Shown piece by piece: positions 45,654-63,348 of a stretch of 64,000 bases of DNA (position 1 is the first letter of the stretch; the number at the start of each line of letters is the position of its first letter). Both the position numbers and the translations under genes were made by a program. The stretch is taken from the IMG/VR virus record IMGVR_UViG_3300042691_029887, positions 10,845-74,844 of that record, one strand, 5' to 3'. This stretch comes from a virus (lineage: Duplodnaviria > Heunggongvirae > Uroviricota > Caudoviricetes). The notes below the pieces were generated by a model. The model ran no database searches, was not told where the DNA came from, and saw only the letters and a list, made by a program, of their open reading frames with translations.

Positions 45654-46541
45654 ATGAGAAGTTTAGTTATTGGTATGGGTATAGGACAATTATACAAATC
45701 TGTACTTGAGGGCATGGGGCATGAAGTTTTGACTTTAGATACTGATCCAACAAAGTCTACAGACTTTAAGGATATTAGAGATGCCAGTCTTCGTTTAAAT
45801 CATTTTAATACCGTACATATATGTACTCCGAATTTCACACATAAAGAGATCGCAGAAGCTATAGCTCCTTCATCAAATATAATTTTTGTTGAAAAGCCTG
45901 GTTTTAGAAACAGCATCGAATGGCAAGATTTTGTAAAATACAGACCATTAACTCATATAATGATGGTAAAAAATAATCAGTGGAGATCTAATATCTCTGA
46001 TATGATAAGACTAAAAGAGCAAGCCTTGGTCATAGAAATACGCTGGCACAATAAAGACCGTGTTCCTAATCCTGGAACTTGGTTTACTACCAAGGAGTTA
46101 GCTTTTGGCGGTGTTAGTAGAGACCTTATGCCACATCTTTTGAGCTTGTTTATGGTCATGGAGCCAAACTATCAACAGGCTGTAAAAATGAGATATTTTT
46201 CCGAACAAAACTGGATATTAGATGATGTAAAAAATACTGATTATGGCATAGTTAATCCCAACGGCACGTATGATGTTGATGATCATTGTAGAATAGAGTA
46301 TGCTATAGATGATAAGATTTGGATACTGGATGCTAATTGGCGAACTCTAAAAGAAGATGATAGGGCTATCATTTTTACTATGAAAGATGGAACTACCAAA
46401 AGAATTGAATTAGGCCTGTGCCCAGAGGAAGCATATAAAAATATGATTAACGATACATTGTTAAGTATGCGAGAAAATATTTTTTGGAAAAAACAACACA
46501 CACAAGATTTGTGGATACATGAGACTATCGAAAAACTATGA
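45654..46541 (+). CDS. NAD(P)-binding oxidoreductase (Gfo/Idh/MocA-like)
   Basis: 295 aa; N-terminal Rossmann G-x-G-x-x-G (VIGMGIGQ) and EKP motif (FVEKPG). Confidence 0.55.
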   Translation: MRSLVIGMGIGQLYKSVLEGMGHEVLTLDTDPTKSTDFKDIRDASLRLNHFNTVHICTPNFTHKEIAEAIAPSSNIIFVEKPGFRNSIEWQDFVKYRPLTHIMMVKNNQWRSNISDMIRLKEQALVIEIRWHNKDRVPNPGTWFTTKELAFGGVSRDLMPHLLSLFMVMEPNYQQAVKMRYFSEQNWILDDVKNTDYGIVNPNGTYDVDDHCRIEYAIDDKIWILDANWRTLKEDDRAIIFTMKDGTTKRIELGLCPEEAYKNMINDTLLSMRENIFWKKQHTQDLWIHETIEKL

Positions 46542-47443
46542 AAGTTAAACTACTTAGAACTTACGGCAATGGTAAATTTGTAGAAGAAGATTGGGTTAAA
46601 CCAGAGCCTAGTGATAACGAAATTGAAGTCAAAGCTCTGATGACTGGTATATGTCGCAGTGACATAGATATGATGACCGGTAAATTTCCTACTTTGCCAG
46701 CACATATGAATGGTCACGAAGGATTAGGAATGGTAACCAAAGTAGGAAAGAATGTTTTAAATACTTGCTTTGGTGATATTGTGGCCACAAGAGGCGAGCC
46801 TGCTTATGCTGATTATTACAATGTTCGAGATAAAGAATTTGTAGTAGTTCCTACAATTGATCCTAAATACATTCTAGAGCCTGTGGCTTGCGGTGTAAAT
46901 CTTGTTAAACAGAATATTGATTTAATTAAGAGCAAAAGTCACGGTCGCTGCCTAATTATTGGCAGCGGGTTTCTGGCCTGGGTAGCTTACCATACTATTA
47001 AATTAGAATATATTAAATTCGAAACATTAGAAGTATGGGGTAATAGTAATAAAGAACTTTGGAATAAAGAAGGTGTATTAGTCAGTGAACCTACTCATGA
47101 TCAATATGATGTGATTATTGACATACGTGAACACGACTTAGTTCTGAAAAGAAATTTACTAGCACCTCTAGGACTTTGGGTCATTGCTGCCGAAAAAGAA
47201 CCAGTAGTAACTACATTTGGTCAACTACTTTGGAATGCTAATACTATTGTTATGCCTAGTCCAAGACACCCAAAATTTTATGATTCCATGTGTGATGCAA
47301 AGATATGGGTGTCAACAGGAAGTTTAAAAGTTGATAACTTTTGGACTAAATCATATGATAGGAATACTGAATGGGAAAAGGCTTTTGAAGATGGATTGAA
47401 TAGGCCTGATGGTTATAGTCGAGGATTTATTGTTTGGAAATGA
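46538..47443 (+). CDS. zinc-type medium-chain alcohol/threonine dehydrogenase family protein
   Basis: 301 aa; catalytic Zn motif GICRSD...H-E-G-x-G, Rossmann IIGSGFLA. Confidence 0.6.
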   Translation: MKVKLLRTYGNGKFVEEDWVKPEPSDNEIEVKALMTGICRSDIDMMTGKFPTLPAHMNGHEGLGMVTKVGKNVLNTCFGDIVATRGEPAYADYYNVRDKEFVVVPTIDPKYILEPVACGVNLVKQNIDLIKSKSHGRCLIIGSGFLAWVAYHTIKLEYIKFETLEVWGNSNKELWNKEGVLVSEPTHDQYDVIIDIREHDLVLKRNLLAPLGLWVIAAEKEPVVTTFGQLLWNANTIVMPSPRHPKFYDSMCDAKIWVSTGSLKVDNFWTKSYDRNTEWEKAFEDGLNRPDGYSRGFIVWK

Positions 47444-47901
47444 ATCGAATACTTTATAAAATAGTCAAAGATGAAATTGTTTCTTTCGACAGATATATCT
47501 CAGGGCAATTACTAGCTCTGGATAGAAGTGTCCTATCTGGCTTTATATCTTGGAACGCTAAAGAGAAATTTTCCTACACAGACTGGGTACAAAAAATAAA
47601 TTCTTTTACTGTAGTAAAAGTAGAAGGATTGGAAGATAATAAAAACATTTGTAAATATTTTAGAAAATTTAAAATCAAAGATATACATTTGTTTAATAGC
47701 ATCAAAACTGACTATAGTTTTGGATGGCATCACGATACTGTAAACGTTTACTTGTATGTCCTAAAAGGAAAGAAACGTGTTAGTATAAAAAATAAAACAG
47801 TTGTGTTAAATGCCGGACAAGGAATCCTTATTCCAAAAGGGAATAAACATCGTGTGTTTAACTACAAAAATACATGGGCTTTGAGTATTGGGTTAAAATG
47901 A
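47434..47901 (+). CDS. cupin / JmjC-like Fe(II) oxygenase-fold protein
   Basis: 155 aa; HxD...H arrangement (GWHHDTVNVYLYVLKG ... NKHRV). Confidence 0.45.
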   Translation: MEMNRILYKIVKDEIVSFDRYISGQLLALDRSVLSGFISWNAKEKFSYTDWVQKINSFTVVKVEGLEDNKNICKYFRKFKIKDIHLFNSIKTDYSFGWHHDTVNVYLYVLKGKKRVSIKNKTVVLNAGQGILIPKGNKHRVFNYKNTWALSIGLK

Positions 47902-48950
47902 AAGAATTAATGATTTATCTCAAAACTACAGAAACTTGTAATTTGAACTGCAAGCATTGTTTTACCAATGGAACCAATGGAGCAAAGATATATTGGGATC
48001 ACATTAAAGTAACAAAATGGTTACAGGAATTTAGCAAAATCACTAATAATTCATCACATGTACATTTAGAATTTCATGGCGGTGAACCCTTCCTAGCAGA
48101 TATAAAATCTTTGCAATATGTATATGATAATTGTTTTGATCTTTGGGCAAGTCAGAGCTGGGGGATCACTACAAATTTAGTTTTCAAACTAGATCAAGAA
48201 AAAATAGATTTTATACAAGGGCCTTTAGGAAATAGAATTGGCACTAGTTGGGATCCTGATATTAGATTTTCTAATCCAAAGCAGTATGATCTTTGGAGGA
48301 AAAATATTGATACATTAATTTCTTTAGGGGTTGATATCAAATTGTTTATTAGTGTTACCAAAGGCACAGTTAACATGGAACCTATCGACTTACTAGAATG
48401 GGTCAGAGATTTAGGAATTAAAGAGTTAGCTCTGGAAAGACTTACTATGAATGGCTCTGCTCTAGAGAATCTAGATATCTTTCCGACTAATTTAGAACAA
48501 GATCAGTGGTTCTTAAAAATGCATCATCAAATTTTAGAAAATGATGCAAGAGATTGGTTTTCTAATGAATTTATGGAGACAATTTATTCCAAGTTTGAGC
48601 AAGGAATAACTTCAGAAGGCACGTTCTGTAGAGATTGCGAAGAAAAATTATTCACTATCAATGCGGATGGATCTATTGCTGGTTGTCCTAATAGTGCTCC
48701 TGAGGATAAGTACGCACATATTGATGACAATATTCAAGATATTTTTATCAATGAAAAGCGACTTCACATTATGGCCTGTGAAAAATCAAGGGATCCCAGG
48801 TGCTACGAATGTCCAGTTTTTGAATACTGTGGTGGAGATTGTCACCAACTAGAATGGCAAGATAATATCTGTGGAGCCCCCAAAAGTCTAATGACATTGC
48901 TCAGCGGAAAAAATAAATATATCAAAGTGATTAATTTAAAGGAAATTTAA
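47898..48950 (+). CDS. radical SAM enzyme with C-terminal SPASM/twitch-like Cys cluster (rSAM-1)
   Basis: CNLNCKHC (Cx3Cx2C) near the N-terminus; C-terminal CRDCEEK...CPNS...CEKSRDPRCYECPVFEYCGGDC. Confidence 0.75.
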   Translation: MKELMIYLKTTETCNLNCKHCFTNGTNGAKIYWDHIKVTKWLQEFSKITNNSSHVHLEFHGGEPFLADIKSLQYVYDNCFDLWASQSWGITTNLVFKLDQEKIDFIQGPLGNRIGTSWDPDIRFSNPKQYDLWRKNIDTLISLGVDIKLFISVTKGTVNMEPIDLLEWVRDLGIKELALERLTMNGSALENLDIFPTNLEQDQWFLKMHHQILENDARDWFSNEFMETIYSKFEQGITSEGTFCRDCEEKLFTINADGSIAGCPNSAPEDKYAHIDDNIQDIFINEKRLHIMACEKSRDPRCYECPVFEYCGGDCHQLEWQDNICGAPKSLMTLLSGKNKYIKVINLKEI

Positions 48951-48951: not shown

Positions 48952-49551
48952 ATGGTAAGAGCAACTAGCTTAACGGATCCGATTAGTGGGTCAAATATAA
49001 CCTACAGATTCAACTCAATCGTCATTAGTTCAGTAAACGCTGGTATTACCTTTGGTACTAACAATAAACCATTCAGCGAAGCTCCTAACAGTTTTTTTGG
49101 CGGGACTACGTCAGGGTACAATGATTTGACATCAGTACTCCCAGTAGGCAATGAAATAAATGCCACAGAGCTGATAGATACTATGGTAATACTGACGCAA
49201 GCATTTACCAATGTTAGAAATGCACAGTTTAAATTGAATCTCACTTCCAGCGGTTCCGCTCCTTATAATGTATCCCAAGGACCTAGAACTGGAAGTCCAG
49301 GGATCATTGAAAATGTCACTGGTAAATCTATTTTAAGTGGCGGTTATATACAAAGTGGAGTTATTTCTATTGACTCTGGCGGCGTTTCTGAAGGGCTACT
49401 AATAACAAAAACATCTATTAACAGTGATTTGTTAGCAGCTTGTAAAGACGAGTATATTTCTGCTGCCGGGAACACGGCTATAATGCCTACAGTGAATGTC
49501 TGCCATGCCAGCTGTCATAGTAGTTGTCATAATTCAAGAAGTAGACGATGA
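48952..49551 (+). CDS. Gly/Ser/Thr/Asn-rich protein with C-terminal Cys/His repeat CHASCHSSCHNSRSRR (candidate modification substrate)
   Basis: 199 aa; starts 2 nt after the rSAM-1 stop; low-complexity beta-rich body; tail VNVCHASCHSSCHNSRSRR. Confidence 0.6.
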   Translation: MVRATSLTDPISGSNITYRFNSIVISSVNAGITFGTNNKPFSEAPNSFFGGTTSGYNDLTSVLPVGNEINATELIDTMVILTQAFTNVRNAQFKLNLTSSGSAPYNVSQGPRTGSPGIIENVTGKSILSGGYIQSGVISIDSGGVSEGLLITKTSINSDLLAACKDEYISAAGNTAIMPTVNVCHASCHSSCHNSRSRR

Positions 49552-50237
49552 TAAAGAAATTATTGAACACAGAAAAAATAATTAGTGAAACAATAGAAAA
49601 TACTCCTTGGCAATACAAAATAATCGATAATATCTTAGAAGAAAGTTTCTTCTTAAAATTAAAGAATTCAGTAGAAAAATTATCTCAAATTCAAAAAGAT
49701 GAAGATTTTTATTCTGATGGAATATGGCCCAATGAGTTTGAATCTTTCAATATTAATAAAGAACTATATGATTCAGTAGTACAATGTCAAAGTGAATTTT
49801 TATCTATCAAAAATGAGTTGTTCTCACAATTTGATTTCTATTTGCGATCAGAATTAGGATATTTTGGGATACCTAAAATTAATTATTCTATGAACAATTT
49901 AGATAGTGCTATCCATGACGAGGGTAAGACAAAATCTCTGGCATTGATCATTTATCTAAGTCCAGAAAAAACATTGGGAACAAGATTGTATGAACAGCAA
50001 TCTTCCGATTCATTAATAAAAGAAGTTGACTGGAAACCTAATAGAGGATTCCTAATGTGTAGTCAACCAGGAGTAACCTGGCATAGTTATAAAAACAATG
50101 GGTCTCCTAGATATACTCTTAATTTATACTGCGAAAAAATGGAAGGTTTAGAAAGTGTACGATCCAATTCTACTGTAGACAGATATGCTTGGTTCTTAAA
50201 TAACATGAACGATTTATCACTAGTCACATACGGTTAA
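49548..50237 (+). CDS. 2OG-Fe(II) oxygenase-like protein, paralog 1 of 3
   Basis: 229 aa; IHDEGKTKSLALIIYLSPEKTLGTRLY...WKPNRGFLMCSQPGVTWHSY shared with 53525..54217 and 54204..54965. Confidence 0.45.
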   Translation: MIKKLLNTEKIISETIENTPWQYKIIDNILEESFFLKLKNSVEKLSQIQKDEDFYSDGIWPNEFESFNINKELYDSVVQCQSEFLSIKNELFSQFDFYLRSELGYFGIPKINYSMNNLDSAIHDEGKTKSLALIIYLSPEKTLGTRLYEQQSSDSLIKEVDWKPNRGFLMCSQPGVTWHSYKNNGSPRYTLNLYCEKMEGLESVRSNSTVDRYAWFLNNMNDLSLVTYG

Positions 50238-50241: not shown

Positions 50242-50943
50242 ATGAAAATTATAAAAACTATTGCACCCATCCCTATCGATGAATTAAAACAATTTTTCGT
50301 AGACAAAGATATAAAATTTGTAATTGATTATAAAAATAGTAAATTACAAGGAAGCAAACTTCTTATATATCTAAGTAATTTAGACATTCCCTGTGATATC
50401 GACATTGACGATGATCAAAATGCTGCATTTGAATTGTTAACTGAATATCTAAACAGTCACTTTTTAGTAAGCATTGAGCTCTTAGAAAAACTTGCTTTAG
50501 AAGCAGTATTATGTTACAAAAAGATATTAGTGAATCCTAATTTTGATAAATTTGTTGAAGATAATTTAGAAATTTTAGAAAGATGGTCTGATATTTTAAA
50601 CAGTTTAGCTCTTTATAATATCTCTACAGTATCAATACCTGAACTGAAAAAACAACTTAATCAATTTGAAGTAAACAATGATGATTCATCTAAAGGAATA
50701 AATTTTGTGAATCTTCTGAAACATGAAGTTTTTTATAATTTCTTTTCTTCTTTTGATAAGAGTAAATTAAAATATTATTCCAACTTCTTTGAAAACTCTG
50801 TTTTCAAAGGAAAAAATCTCTATCATTATTGGGCTAATGAAAACAACACTATGTTTATTTTAACATGGTCTATAGCAAATCCTAACATAGATCTGGATAA
50901 GTTTGATTCAATTTTTGAAACCATTCGTCAGAAAACTCAGTAG
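50242..50943 (+). CDS. hypothetical protein
   Basis: 233 aa. Confidence 0.45.
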   Translation: MKIIKTIAPIPIDELKQFFVDKDIKFVIDYKNSKLQGSKLLIYLSNLDIPCDIDIDDDQNAAFELLTEYLNSHFLVSIELLEKLALEAVLCYKKILVNPNFDKFVEDNLEILERWSDILNSLALYNISTVSIPELKKQLNQFEVNNDDSSKGINFVNLLKHEVFYNFFSSFDKSKLKYYSNFFENSVFKGKNLYHYWANENNTMFILTWSIANPNIDLDKFDSIFETIRQKTQ

Positions 50944-51547
50944 TTTTGTAATCACTAAACCAAGGACCTCCTAAGGTCCAATGAACTATTTTAGCATTTT
51001 TATTTGGACTATTAATTCCTACTAAATGATTCCACTCTGGTGGAATTTCTCCGATATCGCTATCATTTAACCATTTAAATTGATGTAGTTCTAAACCACT
51101 AGCGGTATTAATATAATCTAGAGTAAGGTTTCTACATTTATTATTGTTGAAGAGAATTAAACTACTCCAATTTTTTCTATCATAATAAGTCTGATAGTTG
51201 CCATTAAACTTTACATTATCTTTATATTGACATTTGTGTTTTACTACCATAGCAGAATACTGATCGTCATTTAAAGAAAATAATTCAAATATATCTGCTC
51301 TACACAACATATCAGAATCCATATATAAACTCCAACCTGAATAATCTGATAGATAAGGAACTAGCCACCTAGTAAATGCAGAATCAGTTGTTTGCAGTTT
51401 ATCTCTTTTTCTATATAATATATCATTGAGATCAGTTAGATTTAATAATGATATCTGTAAGTCTTTGGACGAGTTATTAATTATAGAATCAATCTGTATT
51501 CTAATATTTTTTTCGAATTGTTTATCATATCCTATAAAAATTTTCAT
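50882..51547 (-). CDS. GT-A fold glycosyltransferase (GT8-like, DxD motif)
   Basis: 221 aa; FTRWLVPYL...GWSLYMDSDML resembles the GT8 RL.IP.LL...YLDADII block. Confidence 0.5.
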   Translation of the reverse strand: MKIFIGYDKQFEKNIRIQIDSIINNSSKDLQISLLNLTDLNDILYRKRDKLQTTDSAFTRWLVPYLSDYSGWSLYMDSDMLCRADIFELFSLNDDQYSAMVVKHKCQYKDNVKFNGNYQTYYDRKNWSSLILFNNNKCRNLTLDYINTASGLELHQFKWLNDSDIGEIPPEWNHLVGINSPNKNAKIVHWTLGGPWFSDYKTTEFSDEWFQKLNQTYPDLC

Positions 51548-52365: not shown

Positions 52366-53478
52366 TTATTCTAATTCAAAAGGAGCTAATGAAATTAAAT
52401 GTCGATTATATTTTTTCTCTATCATAAAATATTCAACTAAAAACCCTCTAATATTTTCTTTATCTCTGGCACTCCAAAATTTATTGCCTTCTAATAAAGG
52501 ATATTTGTCCCTGCTAAGAAAACTATTCATTTCGGAATCTGATAAAACTCCTCTATGGCAGATATCTATTACTTCTTCAAATCGGGCACCAATATTTTCT
52601 ACGTAAGCGTCAATGAAATTGACTTGATCTTTTAACTGTTGAACCTGAGATGCGGTTAAAGATGTTATGTCCATAGGAGTATGAATTTCACCAACGCCTC
52701 CTAAAGATCTCCAAGCATTAGTTGATTTTAATGTATGCAATTGTGGATCATCAATCATCTCAAGCATATTTTCTAAGTTATATGATCTTAGATTCATTTG
52801 CTGTTGTGCCGGTTCGTAGAGTATTGATTCTTGGACCTGTCTCCATAATTCTTTTAATCTTTCCTCGGTGTATCGATTTATCATTAAATACATCAAAGAA
52901 CGAAGTTCTTCTTTATGTGATCCATTATAAAGATAAGACCCTATTAGATATTCAATACTTCTAAATCCAGAAACTGTGGATAGCATATCTGTTTTTTCTT
53001 GTTGCGTTACAGATATACTATCAAATACAGCTTGGAATTCTGCCTTACTAAACAGGAACTCTCTATACTGATCTTGAAGACCTTTTTCTGCCCGACCACC
53101 AATCAAAATTAGTTGATTAAAATATGCTAAGATTATTTTATAAGCAGCATCAGCACTGATATTAACAAAGATAGTCTTAAACCATTTAGAAGTTATATAC
53201 ATGAATGCTTCTTGATCACAGTAAATTACTATTTTAGAATCAGTGGAGTTGTTGTAATCAAAACAAAATTGCATCATATCTGTAAATGTTGGATAAACTC
53301 CATCAGATTTTATGATGTCATCAACGTTTTCCCCATAAGCAAACAGTCTACCAGAAAAAATATGAACAGCATTGTTGAGTATCTGAAATCCGTGATCCTT
53401 AGATATCACGATTCTGTCTAGATTTTTGTTGATAAATGAATCTATGCTTAGATAAGTCTTTTTAAATAAATGAAACAT
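52366..53478 (-). CDS. hypothetical protein
   Basis: 370 aa. Confidence 0.45.
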   Translation of the reverse strand: MFHLFKKTYLSIDSFINKNLDRIVISKDHGFQILNNAVHIFSGRLFAYGENVDDIIKSDGVYPTFTDMMQFCFDYNNSTDSKIVIYCDQEAFMYITSKWFKTIFVNISADAAYKIILAYFNQLILIGGRAEKGLQDQYREFLFSKAEFQAVFDSISVTQQEKTDMLSTVSGFRSIEYLIGSYLYNGSHKEELRSLMYLMINRYTEERLKELWRQVQESILYEPAQQQMNLRSYNLENMLEMIDDPQLHTLKSTNAWRSLGGVGEIHTPMDITSLTASQVQQLKDQVNFIDAYVENIGARFEEVIDICHRGVLSDSEMNSFLSRDKYPLLEGNKFWSARDKENIRGFLVEYFMIEKKYNRHLISLAPFELE

Positions 53479-53524: not shown

Positions 53525-54217
53525 TCAGTATTTGTTTGTAGTTAAGTGGTTTTTTCCGATTTGGTCCAGTAACCATAACATGCTCTCAAAATTATCGTTT
53601 TCTGCTGACTTTGTCATGGATTTCTCCATACATTCGATTTTTTCGCAGAAAATGTTCAAAGTTACTCTGGGTTCCCCATTAGTATTTTTCCATGTGTGCC
53701 ACGTTTCGTCATTGTTCCCATTTGGGCAAATTATTAAAGCTCTGTTTGGTTTCCATTCTATTTCTTTATGAAAATCAGATTCTTGTTGCCCTGTATATAA
53801 TCTAGTTCCTCGCTCAATTTCGGGTTCCAAATATATTACAATCAGCAAAACTTTATGACTGCTTTCTGAATGTATAGGATACATAAAATTTTTACCGCTT
53901 ACACCAAATTTTGGTAAAGAATAATAGCCGTGTAAAGATTTATTAGTAGTCGAGAATCCTGCTAGTATATCATCAATATTGTCTAAAATTTGATCTGTAA
54001 AATTGATTATACTGTCGACACAGTCCTGCTTTACCCCTAAAGTTAATGCTTCATTAATCCAGATGGGATTAGTTTTGCCATCGATGGTATATTTGGTCAG
54101 AAACTTCGCTGCTTCCTGAACTTTTTTAAAAACTTGGTCAGGCAATATATCGTCTACTACTTTATGTTCCCAAGGGTCGAGCAATATCGGTGAATTTATA
54201 ATTTTATCTATCGTCAT
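53525..54217 (-). CDS. 2OG-Fe(II) oxygenase-like protein, paralog 2 of 3
   Basis: 230 aa; IHSESSHKVLLIVIYLEPEIERGTRLY...WKPNRALIICP...TWHTW. Confidence 0.45.
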   Translation of the reverse strand: MTIDKIINSPILLDPWEHKVVDDILPDQVFKKVQEAAKFLTKYTIDGKTNPIWINEALTLGVKQDCVDSIINFTDQILDNIDDILAGFSTTNKSLHGYYSLPKFGVSGKNFMYPIHSESSHKVLLIVIYLEPEIERGTRLYTGQQESDFHKEIEWKPNRALIICPNGNNDETWHTWKNTNGEPRVTLNIFCEKIECMEKSMTKSAENDNFESMLWLLDQIGKNHLTTNKY

Positions 54218-54965
54218 AAATTGATAGAACCTTTCCCTCTAAAAATTGATTGTAAAACCAATTGATTTTTTCTATTCCTAAATTATTAATGTATTGCATA
54301 TTTTCCATTTTTTCATAATAAAAATTTAATGTTAGTCTAGATTGATGATCAGAATGAAAACTGTGCCAAGTTATACCTGGCTGACTGCACATTATAAATG
54401 CTCTATTAGGCTTCCATTCGACTTCTTTTACGAACGAATTATAATTTTCTTCAGTATAAAGCCTAGTTCCAATAGTTTTTTCAGGAGAAAGATACATAAC
54501 CATGGCTATGGTTTTGTTATTGCCTTCATCATGTATTGTCCCATCAACATTTGGACCAATGAAATTATATCTAGGAATACTAAAATATCCTATTTTACTA
54601 TTCATGGCATTTTGATATCTAGCCAAAACTTTGTTATGATTTTGTAAAAATTGTAAATTCAAATCCATAATTAAATTTATAGTGTCATTAGGAACACCAT
54701 ATTTGGCAGCATCGTGCATCCATATACCATTGGGATCACGTGGCTCTTGAGCGGCTGCTTCTGCTAAAATTTTTCCTCCTTCTAATATTTTATCATAAGA
54801 TTCTTTGGTTAAAATATTATCAACTAACTGATATTGCCAGGGGTTAGTAATGATAGGGGATTCTAATATGTTTTCTATATTAAGCATTGAATTTTTTTTT
54901 GGGCTTAGAAAATTATTTATGATAAATTTTAAGATAAATATGCTGTTAATGGATATTATATACAA
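54204..54965 (-). CDS. 2OG-Fe(II) oxygenase-like protein, paralog 3 of 3
   Basis: 253 aa; IHDEGNNKTIAMVMYLSPEKTIGTRLY...WKPNRAFIMCSQPGITWHSF. Confidence 0.45.
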   Translation of the reverse strand: MYIISINSIFILKFIINNFLSPKKNSMLNIENILESPIITNPWQYQLVDNILTKESYDKILEGGKILAEAAAQEPRDPNGIWMHDAAKYGVPNDTINLIMDLNLQFLQNHNKVLARYQNAMNSKIGYFSIPRYNFIGPNVDGTIHDEGNNKTIAMVMYLSPEKTIGTRLYTEENYNSFVKEVEWKPNRAFIMCSQPGITWHSFHSDHQSRLTLNFYYEKMENMQYINNLGIEKINWFYNQFLEGKVLSIYDDR

Positions 54966-56029
54966 TGAAAGATGAAGAGTTATACAATGTATTGATAGGC
55001 AATCAAAAACAAAATGAACAAGGTGAACTCATTGTAATTCTTTTTGAATTTTGTAATTTATCTTGTCAAGCCTGTTATCAAGACCACAGTAGTATGGCAG
55101 GGGTTGATAGCGTCCAAGAAAAATTTGATATTATTGCTCACGCATTAGATGTATTAAAAGGTAGGGGAAAAACTTCTGTAGCAGTAAACATTATGGGCGG
55201 CGAGCTCTTTGCGGACGAACTACCTGATACTATTTTCGATGATTATACTATCTTAGTGAATAGATTACGTGATTATAGTGAAAAAATAAATCTTCCTTCA
55301 AAATTTTCAGTTCCATCTAATATGATATGGACTAAAAAAGATAGAGTTAAAAAATTCTTGAATGATGCAATGGTAAGGTTAAACGCCAGTTATGATCCAG
55401 CTGGACGTTTTAATCCTAAAACTTTATCTATGTTTATCGATAATGTTAAAGAATTTAAACCTTACATCAATCAAATCGGTATAGTAATGACGAGGCCGAG
55501 TATTAAAAAGTTCATGAATTATTCTGCTAATCATTTTGATTTTTTATACGAAAATTTTGAAATAAATTTTGATCATTATACGCACAGTCAAAGAGCTAGT
55601 GTTGACCCAGAATTATTAATGCCTAAAGATACAGAACTTAGAGATTTTTACAAATTTATGATTGACCATTATCCTAATTGTTATCCATTTTGTGAAACAA
55701 TGGACAGCGGATCTCAACCAATGTTCTGTATGAGAACAATGTATGTCTTTCCTGACTCTACTTTTGGTTCGTGTGGAAGTGTTGAAAAATTAATTAATCC
55801 TTTATCAAAAATAGAAGATAAAAAAGTCATTCGTATAATCAATACCACTGACAGTCCCTTAGAAAAAACTATCGAAGCAAAATGGTATAAAGAATATGAT
55901 TGTTTAAATTGTGATCATCTTCAAAGATGCTCTATGAGTTGTTTTTTAAATAATCATTTTTATAATACTAGAACACAGGAAGAATGTTGGCTCAAAGAAG
56001 TTTATCAATATGTTGACAGTAAAAAATGA
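54965..56029 (+). CDS. radical SAM enzyme (rSAM-2)
   Basis: 354 aa; CNLSCQAC Cx3Cx2C motif; additional C-terminal Cys (CLNCDHLQRCSMSC). Confidence 0.7.
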   Translation: MKDEELYNVLIGNQKQNEQGELIVILFEFCNLSCQACYQDHSSMAGVDSVQEKFDIIAHALDVLKGRGKTSVAVNIMGGELFADELPDTIFDDYTILVNRLRDYSEKINLPSKFSVPSNMIWTKKDRVKKFLNDAMVRLNASYDPAGRFNPKTLSMFIDNVKEFKPYINQIGIVMTRPSIKKFMNYSANHFDFLYENFEINFDHYTHSQRASVDPELLMPKDTELRDFYKFMIDHYPNCYPFCETMDSGSQPMFCMRTMYVFPDSTFGSCGSVEKLINPLSKIEDKKVIRIINTTDSPLEKTIEAKWYKEYDCLNCDHLQRCSMSCFLNNHFYNTRTQEECWLKEVYQYVDSKK

Positions 56030-57645
56030 TAAAAATAGCGTTTATAAATCCGCCTCACGCTGATTGGATAACACCAAATTTAGCCACTTGGTTTTATATG
56101 AAGAGTCATTACGATAGAGTTGGCAAATATAAAAATCAAGTTCAATGGTTAACTCCTCCTTATCGATATAATCAGTATCAGAGTACTGAAGAAATATATG
56201 AGGAAATAAAAGAAGCTGATATTATAATTTTTAGTTCTTATTTTTGGAATTACGATATCTGTGATGAGATCGCAGCATTAGTAAAAACTAAAGATAAAGA
56301 TAAAATAAATTTAATAGGCGGACCGCATATTGGAATAATTGATGGATCATTTGATAAAAGAAAACATCTTTATGATTATTATTGTCAGCCAACTAAACCA
56401 GGTGAAGTGTTTATAGAAGATTTTATAAATTTGTTTATAGAATCTAAATCAAAACCAGATCCAGAATTAGTATCCTGGGAAATAAGATGTGTTTCTGGAA
56501 GAAAGCATGATTTTTCAGGCATTGCTATATACGAAGAAAATTTTAATATCCTAAAAGAAATATGTGATTATGCAAATCAATATGATTTAGAAAAATTTTC
56601 AGTAATAGAAACGACAAGAGGATGTCCATATCAGTGTACTTTCTGCGAGTGGGGTGGCGGGATAGGCACGAAGGTAATAAAACAAGAATTAGAAATAGTT
56701 AAACGAGACTTATTGGCTTTAAAAAAAGCAGGATATAAAAATGTTTTTTTAACTGATGCTAACTTTGGAATGTTTGAGGATAGAGATTTAGAAATTTTTA
56801 AATTTGCTTGGGAAAACGATATAAAACTAACTGACCTTAGCACAGTGAAAGTAAAAAATTTAGAAAGAAGAATAAGACTTATTGATGCTTGTTTTGAAAT
56901 CATGGGCAAAAATAAATCAGAATCTGGATACCCTACTCTAAGTATACAGACTTCAAGCGACGAAGCTATAAAGATCGCCAAACGAACCGACTTATCGTTT
57001 GATGATAAAATCAAATTATCAGAGCATATTTTTAAAAGATTTAAAGAAGGATATATTACTACTCCTACATTAGAATTAATTATGGGAATGCCTGGTTCCA
57101 CAATAGATGATTTTTATAAAGAATTTGATATGTTGTATAATTTTCAATCTTGGAATAGTTATAGACATGACTATATGTTTTTGCCTGATGCAGAAATAAG
57201 TCGCCCGGAATATTTAAAAAAGTACGGTATAGAACTTGTAGAAGTTTATAGTGATTTAATAGATGAAGATTCAGTTGATAACTTTAACAGTTTTTATGGT
57301 AAAAGAAAAAGTTATTTTAAAACAATCTCACAATGTTTTTCTTTCACTAATGACGAGATATGTGAGATGTTTTTTATGAATCAAGCAGGAAATTGGATTT
57401 TAAAAGAAGTGTATTATTCAGGTTTTGAAAGTCTATTTTCTCCTTCAGAATTTACAAAAAAAAGTTATCAAATATTAAAAAAGTTAGACGGCTTCTCAGA
57501 AATATACAGCGACATAAAAGAAATTTACAACGTAGATAGTGAACCAAAAAATATTAAAAGAATTTTAAATGGAAAACGAAATGAAGTTATAGTAAATTTT
57601 TTAAAAAATAATAAAATATTTTTAACGAATGAAATGTTTAGATAA
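56026..57645 (+). CDS. B12-binding-domain radical SAM enzyme (class B-like; rSAM-3)
   Basis: 539 aa; N-terminal Rossmann-like cobalamin-binding region; TTRGCPYQCTFCEWG radical-SAM core. Confidence 0.7.
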   Translation: MIKIAFINPPHADWITPNLATWFYMKSHYDRVGKYKNQVQWLTPPYRYNQYQSTEEIYEEIKEADIIIFSSYFWNYDICDEIAALVKTKDKDKINLIGGPHIGIIDGSFDKRKHLYDYYCQPTKPGEVFIEDFINLFIESKSKPDPELVSWEIRCVSGRKHDFSGIAIYEENFNILKEICDYANQYDLEKFSVIETTRGCPYQCTFCEWGGGIGTKVIKQELEIVKRDLLALKKAGYKNVFLTDANFGMFEDRDLEIFKFAWENDIKLTDLSTVKVKNLERRIRLIDACFEIMGKNKSESGYPTLSIQTSSDEAIKIAKRTDLSFDDKIKLSEHIFKRFKEGYITTPTLELIMGMPGSTIDDFYKEFDMLYNFQSWNSYRHDYMFLPDAEISRPEYLKKYGIELVEVYSDLIDEDSVDNFNSFYGKRKSYFKTISQCFSFTNDEICEMFFMNQAGNWILKEVYYSGFESLFSPSEFTKKSYQILKKLDGFSEIYSDIKEIYNVDSEPKNIKRILNGKRNEVIVNFLKNNKIFLTNEMFR

Positions 57646-58715: not shown

Positions 58716-59620
58716 TAGTTTCTATTAATCCAACCTACTACTGCAATTTTAGATGTGATTTTTGTTATCTAACAGAACAACAACTAAGTGACCGAACATT
58801 ATTACCGTTAACTGTTTTAGAATCACGAATTAAGGAAATACAAGAAATTGATGAAATACAAATGATAGATTTGTATGGAGGTGAAGTAGGATTACTTCCA
58901 GAAACATATGTCAATGAACTTTGTTCTTTATTAAAGAATAATGGAATAGATGATATTAACATCATAACTAATTTGAGTATGGTAAATCAAGTTATAAGAA
59001 ACCCAGACTTTTATCTTACTGTAAGTTATGACTTTGATTGTAGGGAACAGAGTGAGCGTGTTTGGACTAACATGGCATTGTTAGATAGAGAATTTTCGAT
59101 ATTAATTTTAGCCAGTGATTGTTTGATTAAGAAAGATATTGATTTAATGATTAATCAATTAAATTTGTTAGGAAATCTTCAATCTGTAGAAATAAAACCA
59201 TATAGTACTAATCAAGCTAATTGTCATAATGTAAGTAATCTAGATTTTGAAAATTTTGTTAAAGGCTGGATACAGAGTACTATTAAGAAAAAATTTGAGT
59301 TTGTAAATGAAACCAATATTAATAAAACGTTAAATTATAAAAGAAATGCCTTTAGTAATGACCATGTTTATATAACCCCAAGCGGTGAATTTGCTGTACT
59401 GGAATTTGATCTTAACGACAATGAATATTTTAAATTAGTTAATTCTTATAAAGAATATAAAGACTGGGCAGATAATGAACCGTTAAAAAATGTTAGCAAT
59501 GTCTGCAAGTCTTGTACTTATTATGGTAGATGCTTGACAGAGCATTACAGATATGTTAAAAATTTAGATTACAGTTGTAATGGATTTAAAGGATTGATAG
59601 ATTGGTATGCAACTAGATAA
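58712..59620 (+). CDS. radical SAM enzyme (rSAM-5)
   Basis: 302 aa; CNFRCDFC; C-terminal CKSCTYYGRC. Confidence 0.68.
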   Translation: MIVSINPTYYCNFRCDFCYLTEQQLSDRTLLPLTVLESRIKEIQEIDEIQMIDLYGGEVGLLPETYVNELCSLLKNNGIDDINIITNLSMVNQVIRNPDFYLTVSYDFDCREQSERVWTNMALLDREFSILILASDCLIKKDIDLMINQLNLLGNLQSVEIKPYSTNQANCHNVSNLDFENFVKGWIQSTIKKKFEFVNETNINKTLNYKRNAFSNDHVYITPSGEFAVLEFDLNDNEYFKLVNSYKEYKDWADNEPLKNVSNVCKSCTYYGRCLTEHYRYVKNLDYSCNGFKGLIDWYATR

Positions 59621-60023
59621 CTTTTTCATTGATGGATATGTTTTATTAGAAGAATCAAATCTTCATGAAAAAACAGATATGCTTCAGTATCTTGAAGAAA
59701 AATACCTATCAATATTATTTCCAAAATGGAAATTAATAGGGTGTGAATACTCTGAATCAGTACTACCTGAAGACAGAATTACCTTTTGGCATAACGATTC
59801 TAAATTTGGTATGAATGTAACATTTTTATATTACATTGACGAAATGTCGCCAGAAGTAGGCGGATCAATATCTATTAGAAATGGATTCGATGAAATAAAA
59901 ATATATCCTAAATCTGGAACATTAATTTTGATGAGTCAAAAACCAAATATGCAACACAAGGCAGAATATTGCTCAATTCTTAGAAGAATGTATAATATAG
60001 ATTATTATATAGACGGTTACTAA
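59607..60023 (+). CDS. 2OG-Fe(II) oxygenase / cupin-like protein
   Basis: 138 aa; HxD (WHNDSK) and distal His in a beta-rich core. Confidence 0.4.
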   Translation: MQLDNFFIDGYVLLEESNLHEKTDMLQYLEEKYLSILFPKWKLIGCEYSESVLPEDRITFWHNDSKFGMNVTFLYYIDEMSPEVGGSISIRNGFDEIKIYPKSGTLILMSQKPNMQHKAEYCSILRRMYNIDYYIDGY

Positions 60024-60026: not shown

Positions 60027-60431
60027 ATGAAAGAATATAAGATACGTCAGGAGATATATCATAGATTAAACAAGATCTATGATGATGACTTAAAAAATTT
60101 CCAAATAGAAATAACTGAAGACGTTGTCAAGGATGCTGTTAGGTATTTTACAACTAGAGATATAGGTTGGATTTATCCGGCAAAAAGTTATATGGTAGCA
60201 ATATGTTATGCTAAATGGCTATCTGAAGAATTTGGCGGTAGACCATTAGAATACTTAGATGATCCTGGATTACTCTATCATAACGATGATTACTTTAAAC
60301 ACTATAGCAGCGATCCAAAAACCTATGTAAAAATTTTAGAAAGTATAGGTGGGTGGAATTTTGATGAAAGCATGGGTCTTGTTCCTGATGTTAAAAAATA
60401 TTTTCTACTGGAATTTGGTGTCGAAGAATGA
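60027..60431 (+). CDS. hypothetical protein ending in the FGVEE junction motif
   Basis: 134 aa; C-terminus LEFGVEE* overlapping the next start ATGAAT, the same junction as in the 9.8-11.5 kb small-gene array. Confidence 0.45.
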   Translation: MKEYKIRQEIYHRLNKIYDDDLKNFQIEITEDVVKDAVRYFTTRDIGWIYPAKSYMVAICYAKWLSEEFGGRPLEYLDDPGLLYHNDDYFKHYSSDPKTYVKILESIGGWNFDESMGLVPDVKKYFLLEFGVEE

Positions 60432-61012
60432 ATTATGGATTAAATCATTGTTGGGCCACTGCTGTTAGGCTATCTAAAATAAAGAACACATCACTTTTAG
60501 AAGATCTTACTCAGGAAATATTAACCAGTTCTTACATGAAAAATCCGCCTAGCGATTTCCAAGAATTTGATATTTTAAAAGAAACCAGCAATATTTCTAG
60601 ACAATTTTTAAAAGACGAAGTAACCCTAGCTTTTCAAGAATACTTAAATGAAGTATTGGGAGTTGATTTAAAACAGTATCATGGATATGAATTGAGATCT
60701 TGGTTAGCCGGAACTGGAAATGGATACATGATACCAACACATAATCATAGCGGTGCTTCTCTTAGCGCAGTATTTTACTTACTTACAGATGATACTGGTA
60801 AAGGCGGTGAACTTGAGTTGATTGATCCAAGATCCAATGCTAATCGAGGTTATGACAGAAACTTTAAAAAACTTTTTGAAAAGCAAGTATTGACACCCAA
60901 AACTGGAGATGTTATAGTTTTTCCAAGTTTTGTGTATCACTACACTCTACCCTTTACTGGAAGCATAAGATTAGCAATACCTGTGGATCTGTTGCTTGAA
61001 TGTAAAGATTAG
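60428..61012 (+). CDS. 2OG-Fe(II) oxygenase family protein
   Basis: 194 aa; MIPTHNHSGASLSAVFYL...GGELELIDPR...GDVIVFPSFVYHYTLP typical of the small cyanophage-type 2OG-Fe(II) oxygenases. Confidence 0.55.
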   Translation: MNYGLNHCWATAVRLSKIKNTSLLEDLTQEILTSSYMKNPPSDFQEFDILKETSNISRQFLKDEVTLAFQEYLNEVLGVDLKQYHGYELRSWLAGTGNGYMIPTHNHSGASLSAVFYLLTDDTGKGGELELIDPRSNANRGYDRNFKKLFEKQVLTPKTGDVIVFPSFVYHYTLPFTGSIRLAIPVDLLLECKD

Positions 61013-61833: not shown

Positions 61834-61908
61834 TACTCGGTGGTGTTAACGGCAGCATGACGGTCTCCAAAACCGCTGGTGGGGGTTCGAATCCCTCCCG
61901 GGTAGCCA
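61834..61908 (+). tRNA. tRNA-Trp(CCA), CCA encoded
   Basis: Acceptor TACTCGG/CCGGGTA (one G-U); anticodon arm CGGT-CTCCAAA-ACCG; T-arm GGGGG-TTCGAAT-CCCTC; ends GCCA. Confidence 0.75.
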
Positions 61909-61928
61909 AAAATAATGTGTCAAAACTA

Positions 61929-61957
61929 TTGACAACAAAAAAATTTTAGTACATAAT
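61929..61957 (+). promoter_or_regulatory. sigma70-type promoter TTGACA-N17-CATAAT directed into the ORF-free structured region
   Basis: -35 at 61929-61934, 17-nt spacer, -10 at 61952-61957. Confidence 0.55.
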
Positions 61958-62440
61958 AGATGAATAGGGCAGTTTATTGTCCTGCAGGCGGCTTGCCGTT
62001 TGCGAAGAATAACTGTGGTGACACAGCCAAAGCTAGAATGCCTACATACTAGCGCCAGCAATGGTTCACGTAAACAAGCCTGCTCACTGTGGCGACACAG
62101 CGTTCACTGATAAGACCGGTGGATGTAATAGCAAAGCTGATGTATGGGAAAGAACATTGTTCGACGTGCCGCAAGGAACACGGGGCAATGAAAAGTAACA
62201 GGTGGTGCTGACTTCCATGCGAAACCAATCAGTCAGTTAGTATGAGAAAGGGTAGTGTATTGGTTCAAGGGGTCGCACCTAAGAGCTCGTATGCAATGTT
62301 AATGGTAAGTGGGTCCGGTAGAAATACCTGGGTACACATATCGTGAAACATCACTGAGTAGCTCGCGAGGCAAAAGGTATGTGGTGAGTTGTATTCGGCA
62401 GTCCAAAAGATTGTTGAGCAACAGAGGCAGCTCATCGCGG

Positions 62441-62513
62441 TAGGTTGATATAGGCTAATGGTAGGCCAATTCCCTGTTAAGGAATAGACTGTTGGTTCGA
62501 CTCCAACTATCTT
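62441..62513 (+). tRNA. tRNA-Asn(GTT)-like element without encoded CCA and with an imperfect acceptor and D region
   Basis: Perfect anticodon arm ATTCC-CTGTTAA-GGAAT; T-arm GTTGG-TTCGACT-CCAAC; D-loop TAATGGTAG; the acceptor pairs only with mismatches. Confidence 0.4.
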
Positions 62514-63123: not shown

Positions 63124-63236
63124 TCTTTGAAGTTTAACTACACTGGATAACACTAGTAGGTACTAAGTCGACTAACTACCGAAAGTGCTAGGAAGATACG
63201 GAGTTAAACAGTTTGGTTCGATTCCAACAGAGAGCC
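63124..63236 (+). ncRNA. ~112-nt tRNA-like structure (acceptor GCTCTTT/AGAGAGC plus T-arm TTTGG-TTCGATT-CCAAC) with ~40 extra internal nucleotides; no CCA
   Basis: 7-bp acceptor pairing across 105 nt, canonical T-loop, internal GTAG...CTAC and AGTCGACT palindromes; could be an intron- or insert-bearing tRNA or a tRNA-like RNA. Confidence 0.35.
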
Positions 63237-63251
63237 TCTATAAAGTTTCAT

Positions 63252-63341: not shown

Positions 63342-63348
63342 AATTTAT

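Follow-up and report, generated by a model that had tools for sequence, protein, structure and literature searches.

The locus described here raises the question of what a phage encodes when the gene directly downstream of a radical SAM (rSAM)/SPASM enzyme specifies a protein with a Cys/His repeat at its C-terminus: the precursor of a secreted peptide, or a part of the virus particle. The window, by which we mean the whole 64,000-nucleotide stretch analyzed (positions 10,845 to 74,844 of IMG/VR virus record IMGVR_UViG_3300042691_029887), comes from an uncultured phage, and the first-pass annotation of it proposed a precursor of the sacti- or ranthipeptide type, with a modified structural protein – perhaps fibre-like – as a fallback. 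To our knowledge, the known targets of radical-SAM/SPASM maturation are secreted peptide products, together with a small number of cofactors and enzyme subunits, and structural proteins of viruses are not among them. Here, we find that the fallback fits best, and put at roughly 60% the probability that the product is a virion protein with a tail modified by a co-inherited rSAM/SPASM set.

The start codon of the open reading frame (ORF; ATG at 48952) lies one base past the TAA (48948..48950) of the gene for a 358-residue enzyme, rSAM1, and an AGGA is located about 11 nt 5′ of it. The placement directly 3′ of a SPASM rSAM gene is thus borne out, by the 1-nt gap and by an rSAM1 score for the SPASM model (33.2 bits) above the cut-off of 27. 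The product ends in ...VNVCHASCHSSCHNSRSRR followed by the stop codon, and the terminal CHASCHSSCHNSRSRR was confirmed as real. The tail had been described as three CH(A/S)S repeats; this holds for the first two (CHAS and CHSS), and the third is CHNS. All three His residues and three of the four Cys residues of the protein lie within the tail, and the motif has a single occurrence in a six-frame translation of the window.

The remainder of the protein had been taken for low-complexity sequence. Ser, Thr, Gly, and Asn do make up 43% of the residues, but the AlphaFold2 model (33-sequence alignment; mean pLDDT 84.4, pTM 0.77) shows a compact alpha/beta domain that includes three long helices, so that the predicted fold is globular and neither low-complexity nor fibre-like; the tail segment is modeled with low confidence (pLDDT 54). 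The body fold has no match in the PDB, the protein matches nothing in Pfam or in NCBIfam (at E <= 0.1 for NCBIfam), and PHROG 35144 matches it in the tail region only. A RiPP precursor is typically an unfolded peptide of fewer than about 100 residues, comprising leader and core; here the protein has 199 residues with a predicted fold, and its family spans 120 to 364 residues. One feature expected of a precursor is present, in that three invariant Cys residues lie within the last 16 residues of a protein encoded beside a SPASM maturase.

The tail is essentially invariant among 192 distinct sequences, with the consensus [VIL]-CH[AST]S-CH[ST][SN]-CH[GST]S-RGRR-stop. Every His is invariant and directly follows an invariant Cys, the residue at His+2 is Ser in 83–94% of the sequences, and conservation extends to the Ser that closes each four-residue repeat and to the terminal RGRR; in the profile of the target's own body type (type 1, profile A1) the C, H, and terminal R/RR columns are all invariant. 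The codons vary synonymously – TGT and TGC, and CAT and CAC, are all common, and Ser is encoded by both AGY and TCN – which shows that it is the peptide and not the DNA that is conserved, and rules out a DNA-level repeat or an RNA element. The motif is not a chance occurrence, and stands in full at the extreme C-terminus of 210 of the 217 proteins in the target family and of 118 of the 120 proteins in a second family with an unrelated body.

The target family itself is unnamed and virus-restricted (717 representatives at 50% identity), and its bodies show only about 35–40% conservation. The tail is present on at least seven unrelated body clusters with lengths of 120 to 364 residues, among them tandem paralogs and a four-repeat variant, and two tail-body types occur within one genome. 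With the tails stripped, the body types do not match each other. When the type-1 profile A1 was compared with the type-2 profile A3 using hhalign, only A1 columns 136–190 (residues 143–199) aligned, with a probability of 98.9, and this module of about 55 residues is a candidate enzyme-recognition element. Isolate homologs of the target were located via the neighbouring rSAM and not via the target query: tblastn searches of isolate phages with the target protein and with P0043 gave no match, which reflects partly divergence and partly masking of the tail by the low-complexity filter, and the RSF1 tblastn alignment ends at residue 170 of 186.

The linkage of the tail to the rSAM genes is obligate. 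Seventy-five of 85 tail ORFs start between −23 and +38 nt from the stop codon of an ORF of at least 250 codons with a CX3CX2C motif. A scan for the tail pattern, independent of the body, identified an rSAM1–4 homolog at 98 of 119 loci; the other 21 are all short-flanked, and the number of tail loci with adequate flank and without rSAM1–4 is zero. Regardless of gene order, tail loci with enough flanking sequence adjoin homologs of the cupin, rSAM1–4, and o134 genes (Table 1). In the type-1 arrangement rSAM1 is directly 5′ of the tail gene, and at some other loci the two genes overlap. In type 2 the tail genes come after giant or collagen-like structural genes, and a block with the order cupin–rSAM1–rSAM3–rSAM4–o134–rSAM2 is located 5–9 kb away; this block was found at 37 of 45 loci, and the remaining eight all have less than 8.6 kb of downstream sequence. 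The minor body types likewise adjoin the rSAM block. Two narrower interpretations were discarded, namely that rSAM1, the cupin, and o233 are tied to type 1 only (longer-flank loci place rSAM1 and the cupin in type 2 too), and that the CX3CX2C proteins encoded directly after type-2 tail genes are rSAM1 homologs (there is no detectable homology, and only marginal activase-like matches, and these proteins are left out of the evidence for linkage).

The same linkage is seen in isolates. Of the 50,697 isolate phage records, 15 match rSAM1, these are also the ones that match rSAM3, and every one of them encodes a tail protein; a search of 185,579 cellular genomes returned one matching contig, from a metagenome-assembled genome (MAG), and it also carries the cassette. 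The functional link between tail protein and radical SAM enzymes that had been proposed from this one locus is thus supported by the adjacency, the scan, and the isolates. Its narrower form, in which the tail is assigned to the adjacent rSAM1, is insecure; the two genes are adjacent in type 1, but rSAM1 is 5–9 kb distant in other types. Literature searches turned up only passing annotations of the kind 'cupin, radical SAM, 2OG oxygenase' in FLC6, SURPRISE13, and RP12/RP31, which leave the tail and the cassette undescribed.

Table 1. Coordinates of the tail gene and of the associated cassette genes in the window.
Feature	Position	Strand	Supporting match or remark
Cupin-domain protein, 155 aa	47434..47901	+	Pfam Cupin_2, 1.5e-9
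rSAM1, radical SAM/SPASM, 358 aa	47874..48950	+	phrog_1802, 3.9e-69
CH-tail protein, 199 aa, predicted globular alpha/beta body with invariant C-terminal tail	48952..49551	+	
Shared C-terminal module, ~55 residues (last helix, beta-strand, tail)	49378..49548	+	hhalign
Tail, C184-H-A-S-C-H-S-S-C-H-N-S-R-S-R-R199	49501..49548	+	followed by stop at 49549..49551
o233, 233 aa, conserved, after type-1 tail gene	50242..50943	+	phrog_20767, 1.8e-55
o370, ~370 aa, conserved cassette protein	52366..53478	-	within locally inverted segment
rSAM2, rSAM/SPASM-type, 354 aa	54965..56029	+	phrog_1802, 2.8e-30
o539, B12-binding rSAM, C-methyltransferase-like	56026..57645	+	Pfam Radical_SAM and B12-binding
rSAM3, rSAM/SPASM-like, 356 aa	57645..58715	+	SPASM-like Cys motifs
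rSAM4, shorter radical SAM, 302 aa	58712..59620	+	Pfam Radical_SAM
o138, 2OG-Fe(II) oxygenase-like, small, variable member	59607..60023	+	Pfam 2OG-FeII_Oxy_3
o134, 134 aa, accompanies rSAM4 and rSAM2 in all body types	60027..60431	+	
o194, 2OG-Fe(II) oxygenase, cassette end	60428..61012	+	Pfam 2OG-FeII_Oxy_5, 1.9e-13

By its motifs – CX3CX2C at residue 22, CX10GX4C, and CX2CX5CX3C – rSAM1 is a genuine radical SAM/SPASM protein, and it has homologs of 42–48% identity in 15 jumbo-phage records. Its top named match is PapB. The SCIFF maturase (32.7 bits vs a cut-off of 425) and the CXXX-repeat maturase (31.6 vs 350) score far below their cut-offs, and its top match among solved structures is CteB (E = 0.0018). 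rSAM2 has CX3CX2C at residue 30 and CX2CX5CX3C at 313, and accompanies every body type (type 1, type 2, and the minor types). rSAM3 is the best conserved protein of the cassette, at 54–78% identity across loci and 59–65% to proteins of Ralstonia, Burkholderia, Agrobacterium, Sinorhizobium, and Pseudomonas jumbo phages; its SPASM score of 26.7 bits is just under the cut-off of 27, it shares the CX2CX5CX2-3C motif with rSAM2, and it scores 43.7 bits to DynA against a cut-off of 450. rSAM4 (CX3CX2C at residue 11) is present with every major body type, and has homologs of 47–73% identity in type-1 and type-2 loci. None of the cassette rSAMs has room for an N-terminal RRE, and in this and in their full SPASM Cys motifs rSAM1–3 resemble enzymes that act on protein substrates.

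The other cassette members vary in their constancy. In most loci, and in every jumbo-phage isolate checked, the cupin gene precedes rSAM1, and 80 of the first 82 loci have an o233 homolog. Homologs of o370, which matches nothing in Pfam or NCBIfam, occur in 65 type-1 loci, mostly on the + strand. o539 is optional, being present in a subset of loci only, and scores 98 bits – under the cut-off of 700 – to the NCBIfam KedN5-family B12 rSAM C-methyltransferase model. The Pfam match of o138 (7.6e-4) is likewise under its cut-off; homologs occur in many loci, and o194 homologs hold the same position in related loci.

Evidence on where the tail protein is found comes from phage Atu_ph07. Its gp170 is a distant structural homolog of the target (18% identity), the two body folds matching with a Foldseek probability of 1.00, and its computed mass equals the 31.89 kDa of the published proteome table exactly. 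In the virion proteome gp170 was detected through 8 peptides (35% coverage). The list has no entry for the rSAMs gp165, gp168, and gp171, for the cupin gp172, or for gp169, which is the homolog of o233 (PMC6102473 Table S5). It is most abundant in gel band 1, the top slice, whereas other proteins of about 30 kDa peak in bands 7–8 (PMC6102473). This high-mass migration could reflect disulfides or an SDS-stable oligomer, disulfides being possible since no reductant is listed for the loading buffer (PMC6102473). The detection in virions is that of the Atu_ph07 homolog, and by analogy we infer that the protein of the window's own uncultured phage is located in the virion too. For the first-pass annotation, homologs that are ordinary virion proteins with no linkage to rSAM genes would have counted against its proposal; the homologs are virion proteins that do have this linkage.

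These observations bear on the proposal of a RiPP precursor, in which the body would be a long leader and the 16-residue tail a core that is cross-linked by a SPASM enzyme, cleaved, and released as a sacti- or ranthipeptide. Long leaders derived from protein domains exist, as in the NHLP and Nif11 leaders, the Cys-rich C-terminus does adjoin a SPASM rSAM, and the match list of rSAM1 is headed by the ranthipeptide maturase PapB and includes the CXXX-repeat and SCIFF maturases. However, the PapB score is 63 bits against a cut-off of 340, the body is predicted to be a well-folded conserved domain, and gp170 itself is in the Atu_ph07 virion. In addition, the rSAMs have no room for an N-terminal RRE, the cassette is without a protease, transporter, or immunity gene (neither a peptidase nor an ABC transporter was found among its proteins using Pfam, NCBIfam, and PHROGs), and the family is confined to lytic-type large phages, where it is located among structural genes. 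A sacti- or ranthipeptide-type precursor is thus unsupported, and is the least probable of the explanations considered here.

The packaging of gp170 without the enzymes similarly argues against an accessory role in rSAM function – as a chaperone acting through the Cys/His tail, as an electron carrier, or in donating or scaffolding Fe-S clusters – which the tight translational coupling with rSAM1 might otherwise suggest, Cys/His-rich termini being found in metallochaperones. The many unrelated bodies, the tandem paralogs, and the presence of two types in one genome are a better fit to multiple substrates sharing a module, and type-2 tail genes follow giant or collagen-like genes at a distance of 5–9 kb from the enzymes. 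We consider an accessory role highly improbable.

An unmodified Cys3His3 metal site (Zn, Fe, Cu, or Fe-S), possibly between subunits, is a third alternative, with the rSAMs acting elsewhere, for example on DNA, on a sugar or small molecule, or on structural proteins other than this one. In T4 gp37, P2 gpV, phi92 gp138, and PAAR proteins, His (and Cys) residues coordinate metal ions at trimer axes; in the tail, three Cys and three His recur at a regular four-residue period, the low pLDDT is expected of a segment ordered only by metal or oligomerization, and gp170 runs as a high-mass species. Such a site leaves unexplained, however, that the tail is never found without the rSAM set in more than 119 viral loci, that the sole cellular-genome match also carries the cassette, and that co-occurrence in isolates is perfect, as well as the conservation of the RGRR end and of the fourth residue, Ser, of the repeats; nor was any other candidate substrate with a conserved motif seen in the cassette. 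An unmodified metal site is therefore unlikely. Metal binding and modification of the tail are not mutually exclusive, and a composition of three Cys and three His would suit a plain metal site as well. Two further roles were rejected: a CX3CH haem-attachment motif, for a cytoplasmic, phage-encoded system that has no haem lyase and with the conserved Ser and RGRR left unexplained, and rSAM-dependent DNA hypermodification, as described for thymidine (PMC8989533), the kinase and transferase partners of which were not found.

We therefore favor a virion-associated structural protein that is modified at its tail, as opposed to the precursor of a secreted peptide. It would consist of an alpha/beta body and a C-terminal module that terminates in (Cys-His-x-Ser)x3-Arg-Gly/Ser-Arg-Arg-COOH, with this tail modified post-translationally in the cytoplasm, during infection, by at least one enzyme of the set. 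The set comprises the SPASM-type rSAM1–3, the shorter rSAM4, and o134, frequently accompanied by 2OG-Fe(II) oxygenases, a cupin, and an rSAM of the B12 type. For some of these four or five rSAMs the target may instead be the body, another protein, or a small molecule. Homology gives no guide to the chemistry, since all named maturase families score far under their cut-offs, but radical-mediated cross-links inside the tail seem most likely. These could be Cys thioether bonds, for which the conserved potential acceptors in the tail are only Ser, His, and Arg, unlike known CX3D/E motifs, or triceptide-type bonds from His-C2 to C-beta on the three H-x-S units. Either would stiffen the tail, otherwise flexible and rich in Cys and His, by locking it covalently, and the resulting structure might bind metal or form cross-links within the virion.

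A more tentative extension, to which we give somewhat less than even odds, is that the four or five rSAMs form a machine that installs a new covalent structure on the (CHxS)3-RGRR tails of several virion proteins. It could take the form of a cage of cross-linked Cys and His residues, of a cofactor or metal site derived from the protein, or of a covalent lock between subunits, and if there is such a machine, the module of about 55 residues would be a portable tag that sends any body to the enzymes. Hundreds of phage genomes from marine and soil sources carry both the tail and the rSAM set, with jumbo phages of Agrobacterium, Sinorhizobium, Ralstonia, Burkholderia, and Pseudomonas as cultured carriers. 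If the tail is modified as proposed, this would be the first radical-SAM 'RiPP-type' chemistry in the construction of a virus particle, and would bring radical chemistry of a new class at the protein level, a new way of assembling or stabilizing virions, and a portable tag for enzyme-directed modification.

Several known systems can be compared with this one. The metal sites at the tips of phage spikes and fibres (the HxH motifs of T4 gp37, the apices of P2 gpV and phi92 gp138, and the Zn site of PAAR proteins) share periodic His, or Cys, residues in a virion protein, which may likewise act at an oligomer axis. Those sites need no dedicated rSAMs and are internal to beta-helical fibres, whereas the motif here is a terminal tail on a predicted globular domain, and never without the rSAM set. 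The anaerobic sulfatase-maturating enzymes (anSME), which convert Cys or Ser to formylglycine, are alike in being rSAM/SPASM proteins of about 360 residues, without an N-terminal RRE, that act on a full-length protein, as would be the case here. The sulfatase motif C-x-(P/A)-x-R has a loose counterpart in the third repeat, C-H-(G/S/N)-S-R, and rSAM1 and the SPASM part of rSAM3 are matched by anSME models at 39–40 bits vs a cut-off of 349. The tail differs in having G/S/T/N and not P/A at position +2, and Cys and not Arg at +4 in repeats 1 and 2, and no sulfatase domain was found in the target using Pfam and NCBIfam. PapB, CteB, and the CXXX-repeat system share the C-terminal Cys residues at a four-residue period beside a SPASM rSAM, but here the substrate would be a folded virion protein of 120–364 residues, with no protease, exporter, or CX3D/E acceptor, and the rSAMs have no room for an N-terminal RRE.

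His-containing repeats are processed in two other systems. Hxs systems have two rSAMs and one His-Xaa-Ser repeat protein (PMC9062424). The target has H-x-S three times but is not HxsA, TIGR03979 being unmatched in the NCBIfam search, and the matches of rSAM1 to HxsB (35.4 bits vs 370) and of rSAM3 to HxsC (26.8 vs 267.9) cover the rSAM core only. In triceptides, rSAM/SPASM synthases link His-C2 to C-beta of the residue at +2 in repeated H-x-x motifs, of which a precursor can hold two or three (PMC11499958). The 3-CyFE families XyeB, GrrM, FxsB, YhhB, and AmcB score 23–27 bits vs cut-offs of 310–450, outside the range of membership, and triceptide motifs are without the invariant Cys that precedes each His here. 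The tail nevertheless has the aromatic-X-X form of triceptide substrates in H-A-S, H-S-S, and H-N-S, at a fixed period and beside SPASM rSAMs, as with HaaB, HtkB, and YhhB.

The remaining system is QhpC/QhpD of quinohemoprotein amine dehydrogenase, in which the rSAM QhpD, encoded alongside its substrate, introduces three Cys-to-Asp/Glu thioethers into the subunit QhpC (PMC7876137). QhpC has a cleaved 28-residue leader, an operon with a protease and an ABC exporter, and Asp/Glu acceptors; compared by description, the phage system has no leader, protease, exporter, or conserved acidic acceptor, and instead has four or five rSAMs and a phage virion. The two would be alike in that an rSAM is encoded with its – here putative – protein substrate, with a cytoplasmic setting, three Cys-centred modifications, and a substrate that is not secreted as an antibiotic but stays functional as a protein (PMC7876137).

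The 199-aa tail protein ends in VNVCHASCHSSCHNSRSRR*, with three repeats (CHAS, CHSS and CHNS) that hold all three of its histidines and three of its four cysteines, and the CH motif occurs only once in a six-frame translation of the 64-kb window. Its ATG lies 1 base past the stop of the gene for rSAM1, a genuine radical SAM/SPASM protein with CX3CX2C at residue 22, CX10GX4C and CX2CX5CX3C, and a score of 33.2 bits against the SPASM model (cut-off 27). The ORF end, these motifs and the SPASM score confirm the first-pass annotation of an ORF with C-terminal CH repeats beside a SPASM radical SAM gene. Its low-complexity, fibre-like body is not borne out: 43% of residues are Ser, Thr, Gly or Asn, yet the AlphaFold2 model (33-sequence alignment) predicts a compact alpha/beta domain (mean pLDDT 84.4, pTM 0.77), with confidence dropping to 54 within the tail.

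No Pfam or NCBIfam model matches the window protein, and the match to PHROG 35144 (unknown function) is confined to its last 20 residues. A word-indexed search returned 69 full-length homologs of 180-220 aa, and a profile search among 1.84 billion cluster representatives returned 717 at E <= 1e-3; this family (type 1) is real, large and unnamed. Family bodies align to the window protein at 32-67% identity, mostly 35-41%, and the same alignment shows no variation in the tail columns for C, H and terminal R/RR. CHxxCHxxCHxx followed by RxRR stands at the extreme C-terminus of 210 of the 217 family proteins fetched. Tail codons vary freely, with TGT/TGC and CAT/CAC both common and Ser encoded by AGY and TCN; this synonymous variation rules out a DNA or RNA element and indicates that selection acts on the peptide. 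The BLAST low-complexity filter hides the Cys/His/Ser tail, tblastn alignments ending 16 residues short of the C-terminus, and tail-only relatives are therefore invisible in the annotated phage collection.

The same tail is carried by a second family (type 2; 142 homologs of 125-140 aa, reached via one divergent locus), and is complete in 118 of the 120 type-2 proteins listed. With tails stripped, no similarity was found between type-1 and type-2 bodies, and profile-profile alignment shows that they have in common only the last ~55 residues – the final helix, strand and tail – at a probability of 98.9, a figure inflated by the invariant tail itself. Type-2 genes usually occur as two tandem paralogs directly 3' of giant (1853- or 2893-aa) or collagen-like structural genes, and both types are encoded on one 151-kb contig. 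A body-independent scan of IMG/VR with a degenerate DNA pattern of the tail plus stop codon found at least 119 stretches, so that prevalence figures are lower bounds, and when all ORFs with the tail were clustered they fell into at least seven body groups of 120-364 aa, one of them with four repeats. The consensus of 192 distinct tails is [VIL]-CH[AST]S-CH[ST][SN]-CH[GST]S-RGRR, in which the search pattern itself dictates C, H and the terminal R-x-R-R; Ser at repeat position 4, left free by the pattern, is present in 83-94%. On comparison of these bodies, the tail is a portable module. The four-repeat form, CHSNCHSNCHSNCHTNRSRR, belongs to a 257-aa protein at L176 (IMGVR_UViG_3300028797_000096, 231.6 kb), whose gene lies amid several weakly related rSAM paralogs (23-33% identical).

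Across 76 IMG/VR loci the near-universal order is cupin - rSAM1 - tail protein - o233 - ... - rSAM2 - (B12-type rSAM o539) - rSAM3 - (rSAM4), and 75 of 85 tail-bearing ORFs begin -23 to +38 nt from the point where a CX3CX2C ORF of 250 aa or more stops, the remainder being contig-end truncations, local insertions or different arrangements. Isolate phages serve as an independent check: among 50,697 records rSAM1 matches 15, and the set matched by rSAM3, with 59-65% identity, is identical. All are jumbo phages, infecting Ralstonia and Burkholderia (the RSF1/RSL2/FLC group), Agrobacterium (Atu_ph07), Sinorhizobium (Phosso) and Pseudomonas (pPa_SNUABM_DT01). The gene 3' of rSAM1 in every isolate lineage terminates in CHxSCHxSCHx(S/A)RxRR*, despite an RSF1 body unrelated by BLAST and Atu_ph07 and Phosso bodies 100 aa longer. 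When 185,579 cellular genomes were scanned by pattern, one relative emerged, on a cassette-carrying MAG contig.

Type-2 loci of 20 kb showed only rSAM3, rSAM4, o134 and rSAM2, so that rSAM1, cupin and o233 initially appeared to be restricted to type 1; for rSAM1 and cupin this was overturned by longer-flank type-2 loci, which carry both. Their layout is cupin-rSAM1-rSAM3-rSAM4-o134-rSAM2, 5-9 kb from the tail genes, with rSAM1 46-53% identical. The block is seen in 37 of 45 type-2 loci, the other eight all having less than 8.6 kb of downstream sequence, and an rSAM1-4 homolog accompanies 98 of the 119 matches listed in the body-independent sample, the other 21 being short-flanked; minor body types likewise adjoin the rSAM set. 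Among the matches listed, no tail locus with adequate flank lacks the set, and the tail therefore co-occurs with the whole set whatever the gene order. The proposed linkage of tail protein and radical SAM genes thus stands (75/85 adjacency, 15/15 isolates), but adjacency does not identify rSAM1 as the tail enzyme: its position in the window is one of several arrangements, and in type 2 the two are 5-9 kb apart. In the marine contigs (Tara and others) L084 (905..20420) and L086 (6834..20387), a 2893-aa protein or two collagen-repeat proteins precede a tandem pair of 125-140-aa tail proteins; next come five divergent CX3CX2C proteins of ~340-390 aa, without a match to any named family, and lastly, on the opposite strand, the shared rSAM3-rSAM4-o134-rSAM2 block.

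SPASM-type Cys motifs are present in rSAM1, rSAM2 and rSAM3, and rSAM4 is shorter; CX3CX2C begins at residues 11-30 in all four, leaving no space for an N-terminal RRE domain. Named maturase families all score far under cut-off (PapB 63 vs 340, DynA about 45 vs 450, anSME 40 vs 349, HxsB 35 vs 370, HxsC 27 vs 268, cyclophane synthases about 25 vs 370-450), and the closest solved structures to rSAM1 are CteB and MoaA (E about 2e-3). The cassette also includes cupin and 2OG-Fe(II) oxygenases, and some of the related cassettes lack the optional o539, while it occurs in duplicate in others, such as locus L136. A minus-strand segment, which also holds a 271-aa protein of unknown function, interrupts the otherwise plus-strand window cassette and has the appearance of a local inversion combined with expansion of paralogs. 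Window GC is 35.5%, its larger ORFs match PHROG families mostly of unknown function, and the last 3 kb of the + strand has no ORF of at least 90 aa.

Coordinates of the cassette and other features in the window
Feature	Position	Strand	Description
11 tRNA genes	61834..63789; 16590..19940	+; -
Eight-tRNA array			Trp, Asn, Tyr, Glu, Asp, Thr, Pro, Ile; directly after rSAM cassette
842-aa ORF	22528..25056	-	Unmatched in PHROG at 1e-5 and by tblastn in 50,697 isolate phage records
Two oxidoreductase-like genes	45654..47443	+	GFO/IDH/MocA type; Zn-alcohol-dehydrogenase N-terminal-domain type; directly upstream of cupin; outside conserved cassette of other loci
rSAM1	47874..48950	+	358 aa
Tail protein	48952..49551	+	199 aa
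Three ~230-250-aa paralogs	49548..50237; 53525..54217; 54204..54965	+; -; -	Shared motifs, e.g. GTRLY...WKPNR...TWHS; no Pfam, NCBIfam or PHROG match; homologs in one other locus only (L020, between rSAM1 and tail gene)
Minus-strand segment	50882..54965	-
GT8-like glycosyltransferase	50882..51547	-	Within minus-strand segment
~370-aa conserved cassette protein	52366..53478	-	+ strand in most other loci
o539	56026..57645	+	539 aa; B12-binding radical SAM, like C-methyltransferases; KedN5 family 98 bits, cut-off 700

Structural gene clusters contain or adjoin the cassette in Atu_ph07, RSF1 and metagenomic contigs. In Atu_ph07 the gene 3' of rSAM1 is FDI40_gp170, whose computed mass (31.89 kDa) agrees with that of gp170 in the virion proteome (8 unique peptides, 35% coverage; PMC6102473 Table S5), as likewise for the neighbours gp176 and gp177, and its predicted structure matches the window-protein model (Foldseek probability 1.00). 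The rSAMs gp165, gp168 and gp171, the cupin gp172 and the o233 homolog gp169 are all absent from the virion list. In that table higher band number means lower mass, and 87-127 kDa proteins peak in band 1; gp170 was found in bands 1-9 and is richest in band 1, unlike other ~30-kDa proteins, which peak in bands 7-8 (PMC6102473 Table S5). After SDS boiling gp170 is therefore mainly a much larger species, and this shift could reflect disulfides via tail Cys (the loading buffer lists no reductant; PMC6102473), a non-reducible cross-link or an SDS-stable oligomer. The virion location comes from this one distant homolog, the window phage being uncultured.

On the best-supported reading this is a virion protein, with its conserved C-terminal module as the putative substrate of the co-inherited rSAM/SPASM set, which would mature it at the protein level. 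That Cys, His and, for the most part, Ser are invariant points to a role for more than one kind of residue in the tail, a pattern that would be in keeping with several enzymes working in succession. The products could be Cys thioethers, or triceptide-type His-C2 to C-beta links on the three H-x-S units, as made by rSAM/SPASM enzymes on HAA, HNR and HTK motifs (PMC11499958); the motif fits both chemistries, and sequence alone cannot choose. The strongest of three rivals is an unmodified Cys3His3 metal site, which could also hold alongside modification. Behind it come a RiPP cleaved from a giant leader, in line with the precursor role first suggested, and an accessory Fe-S or electron-carrier role.

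A literature search gave no account of the tail motif, nor of the cassette as a unit: the FLC6, SURPRISE13 and RP12/RP31 papers mention their cupin, radical SAM and 2OG-oxygenase genes only among accessory ones with no known role, and a broad comparative jumbo-phage study does not mention radical SAM genes. rSAM/SPASM maturation of a ribosomal polypeptide is already known; distinctive here are phage virion proteins as proposed substrates, a new invariant motif and a multi-enzyme set. Nearest in logic, with the tail chemistry here only predicted, is QhpD, an rSAM enzyme that forms three thioethers in QhpC, a subunit that is its single-turnover substrate and is encoded alongside it (PMC7876137), and anSME acting on sulfatases is a comparable case of protein-level rSAM maturation.
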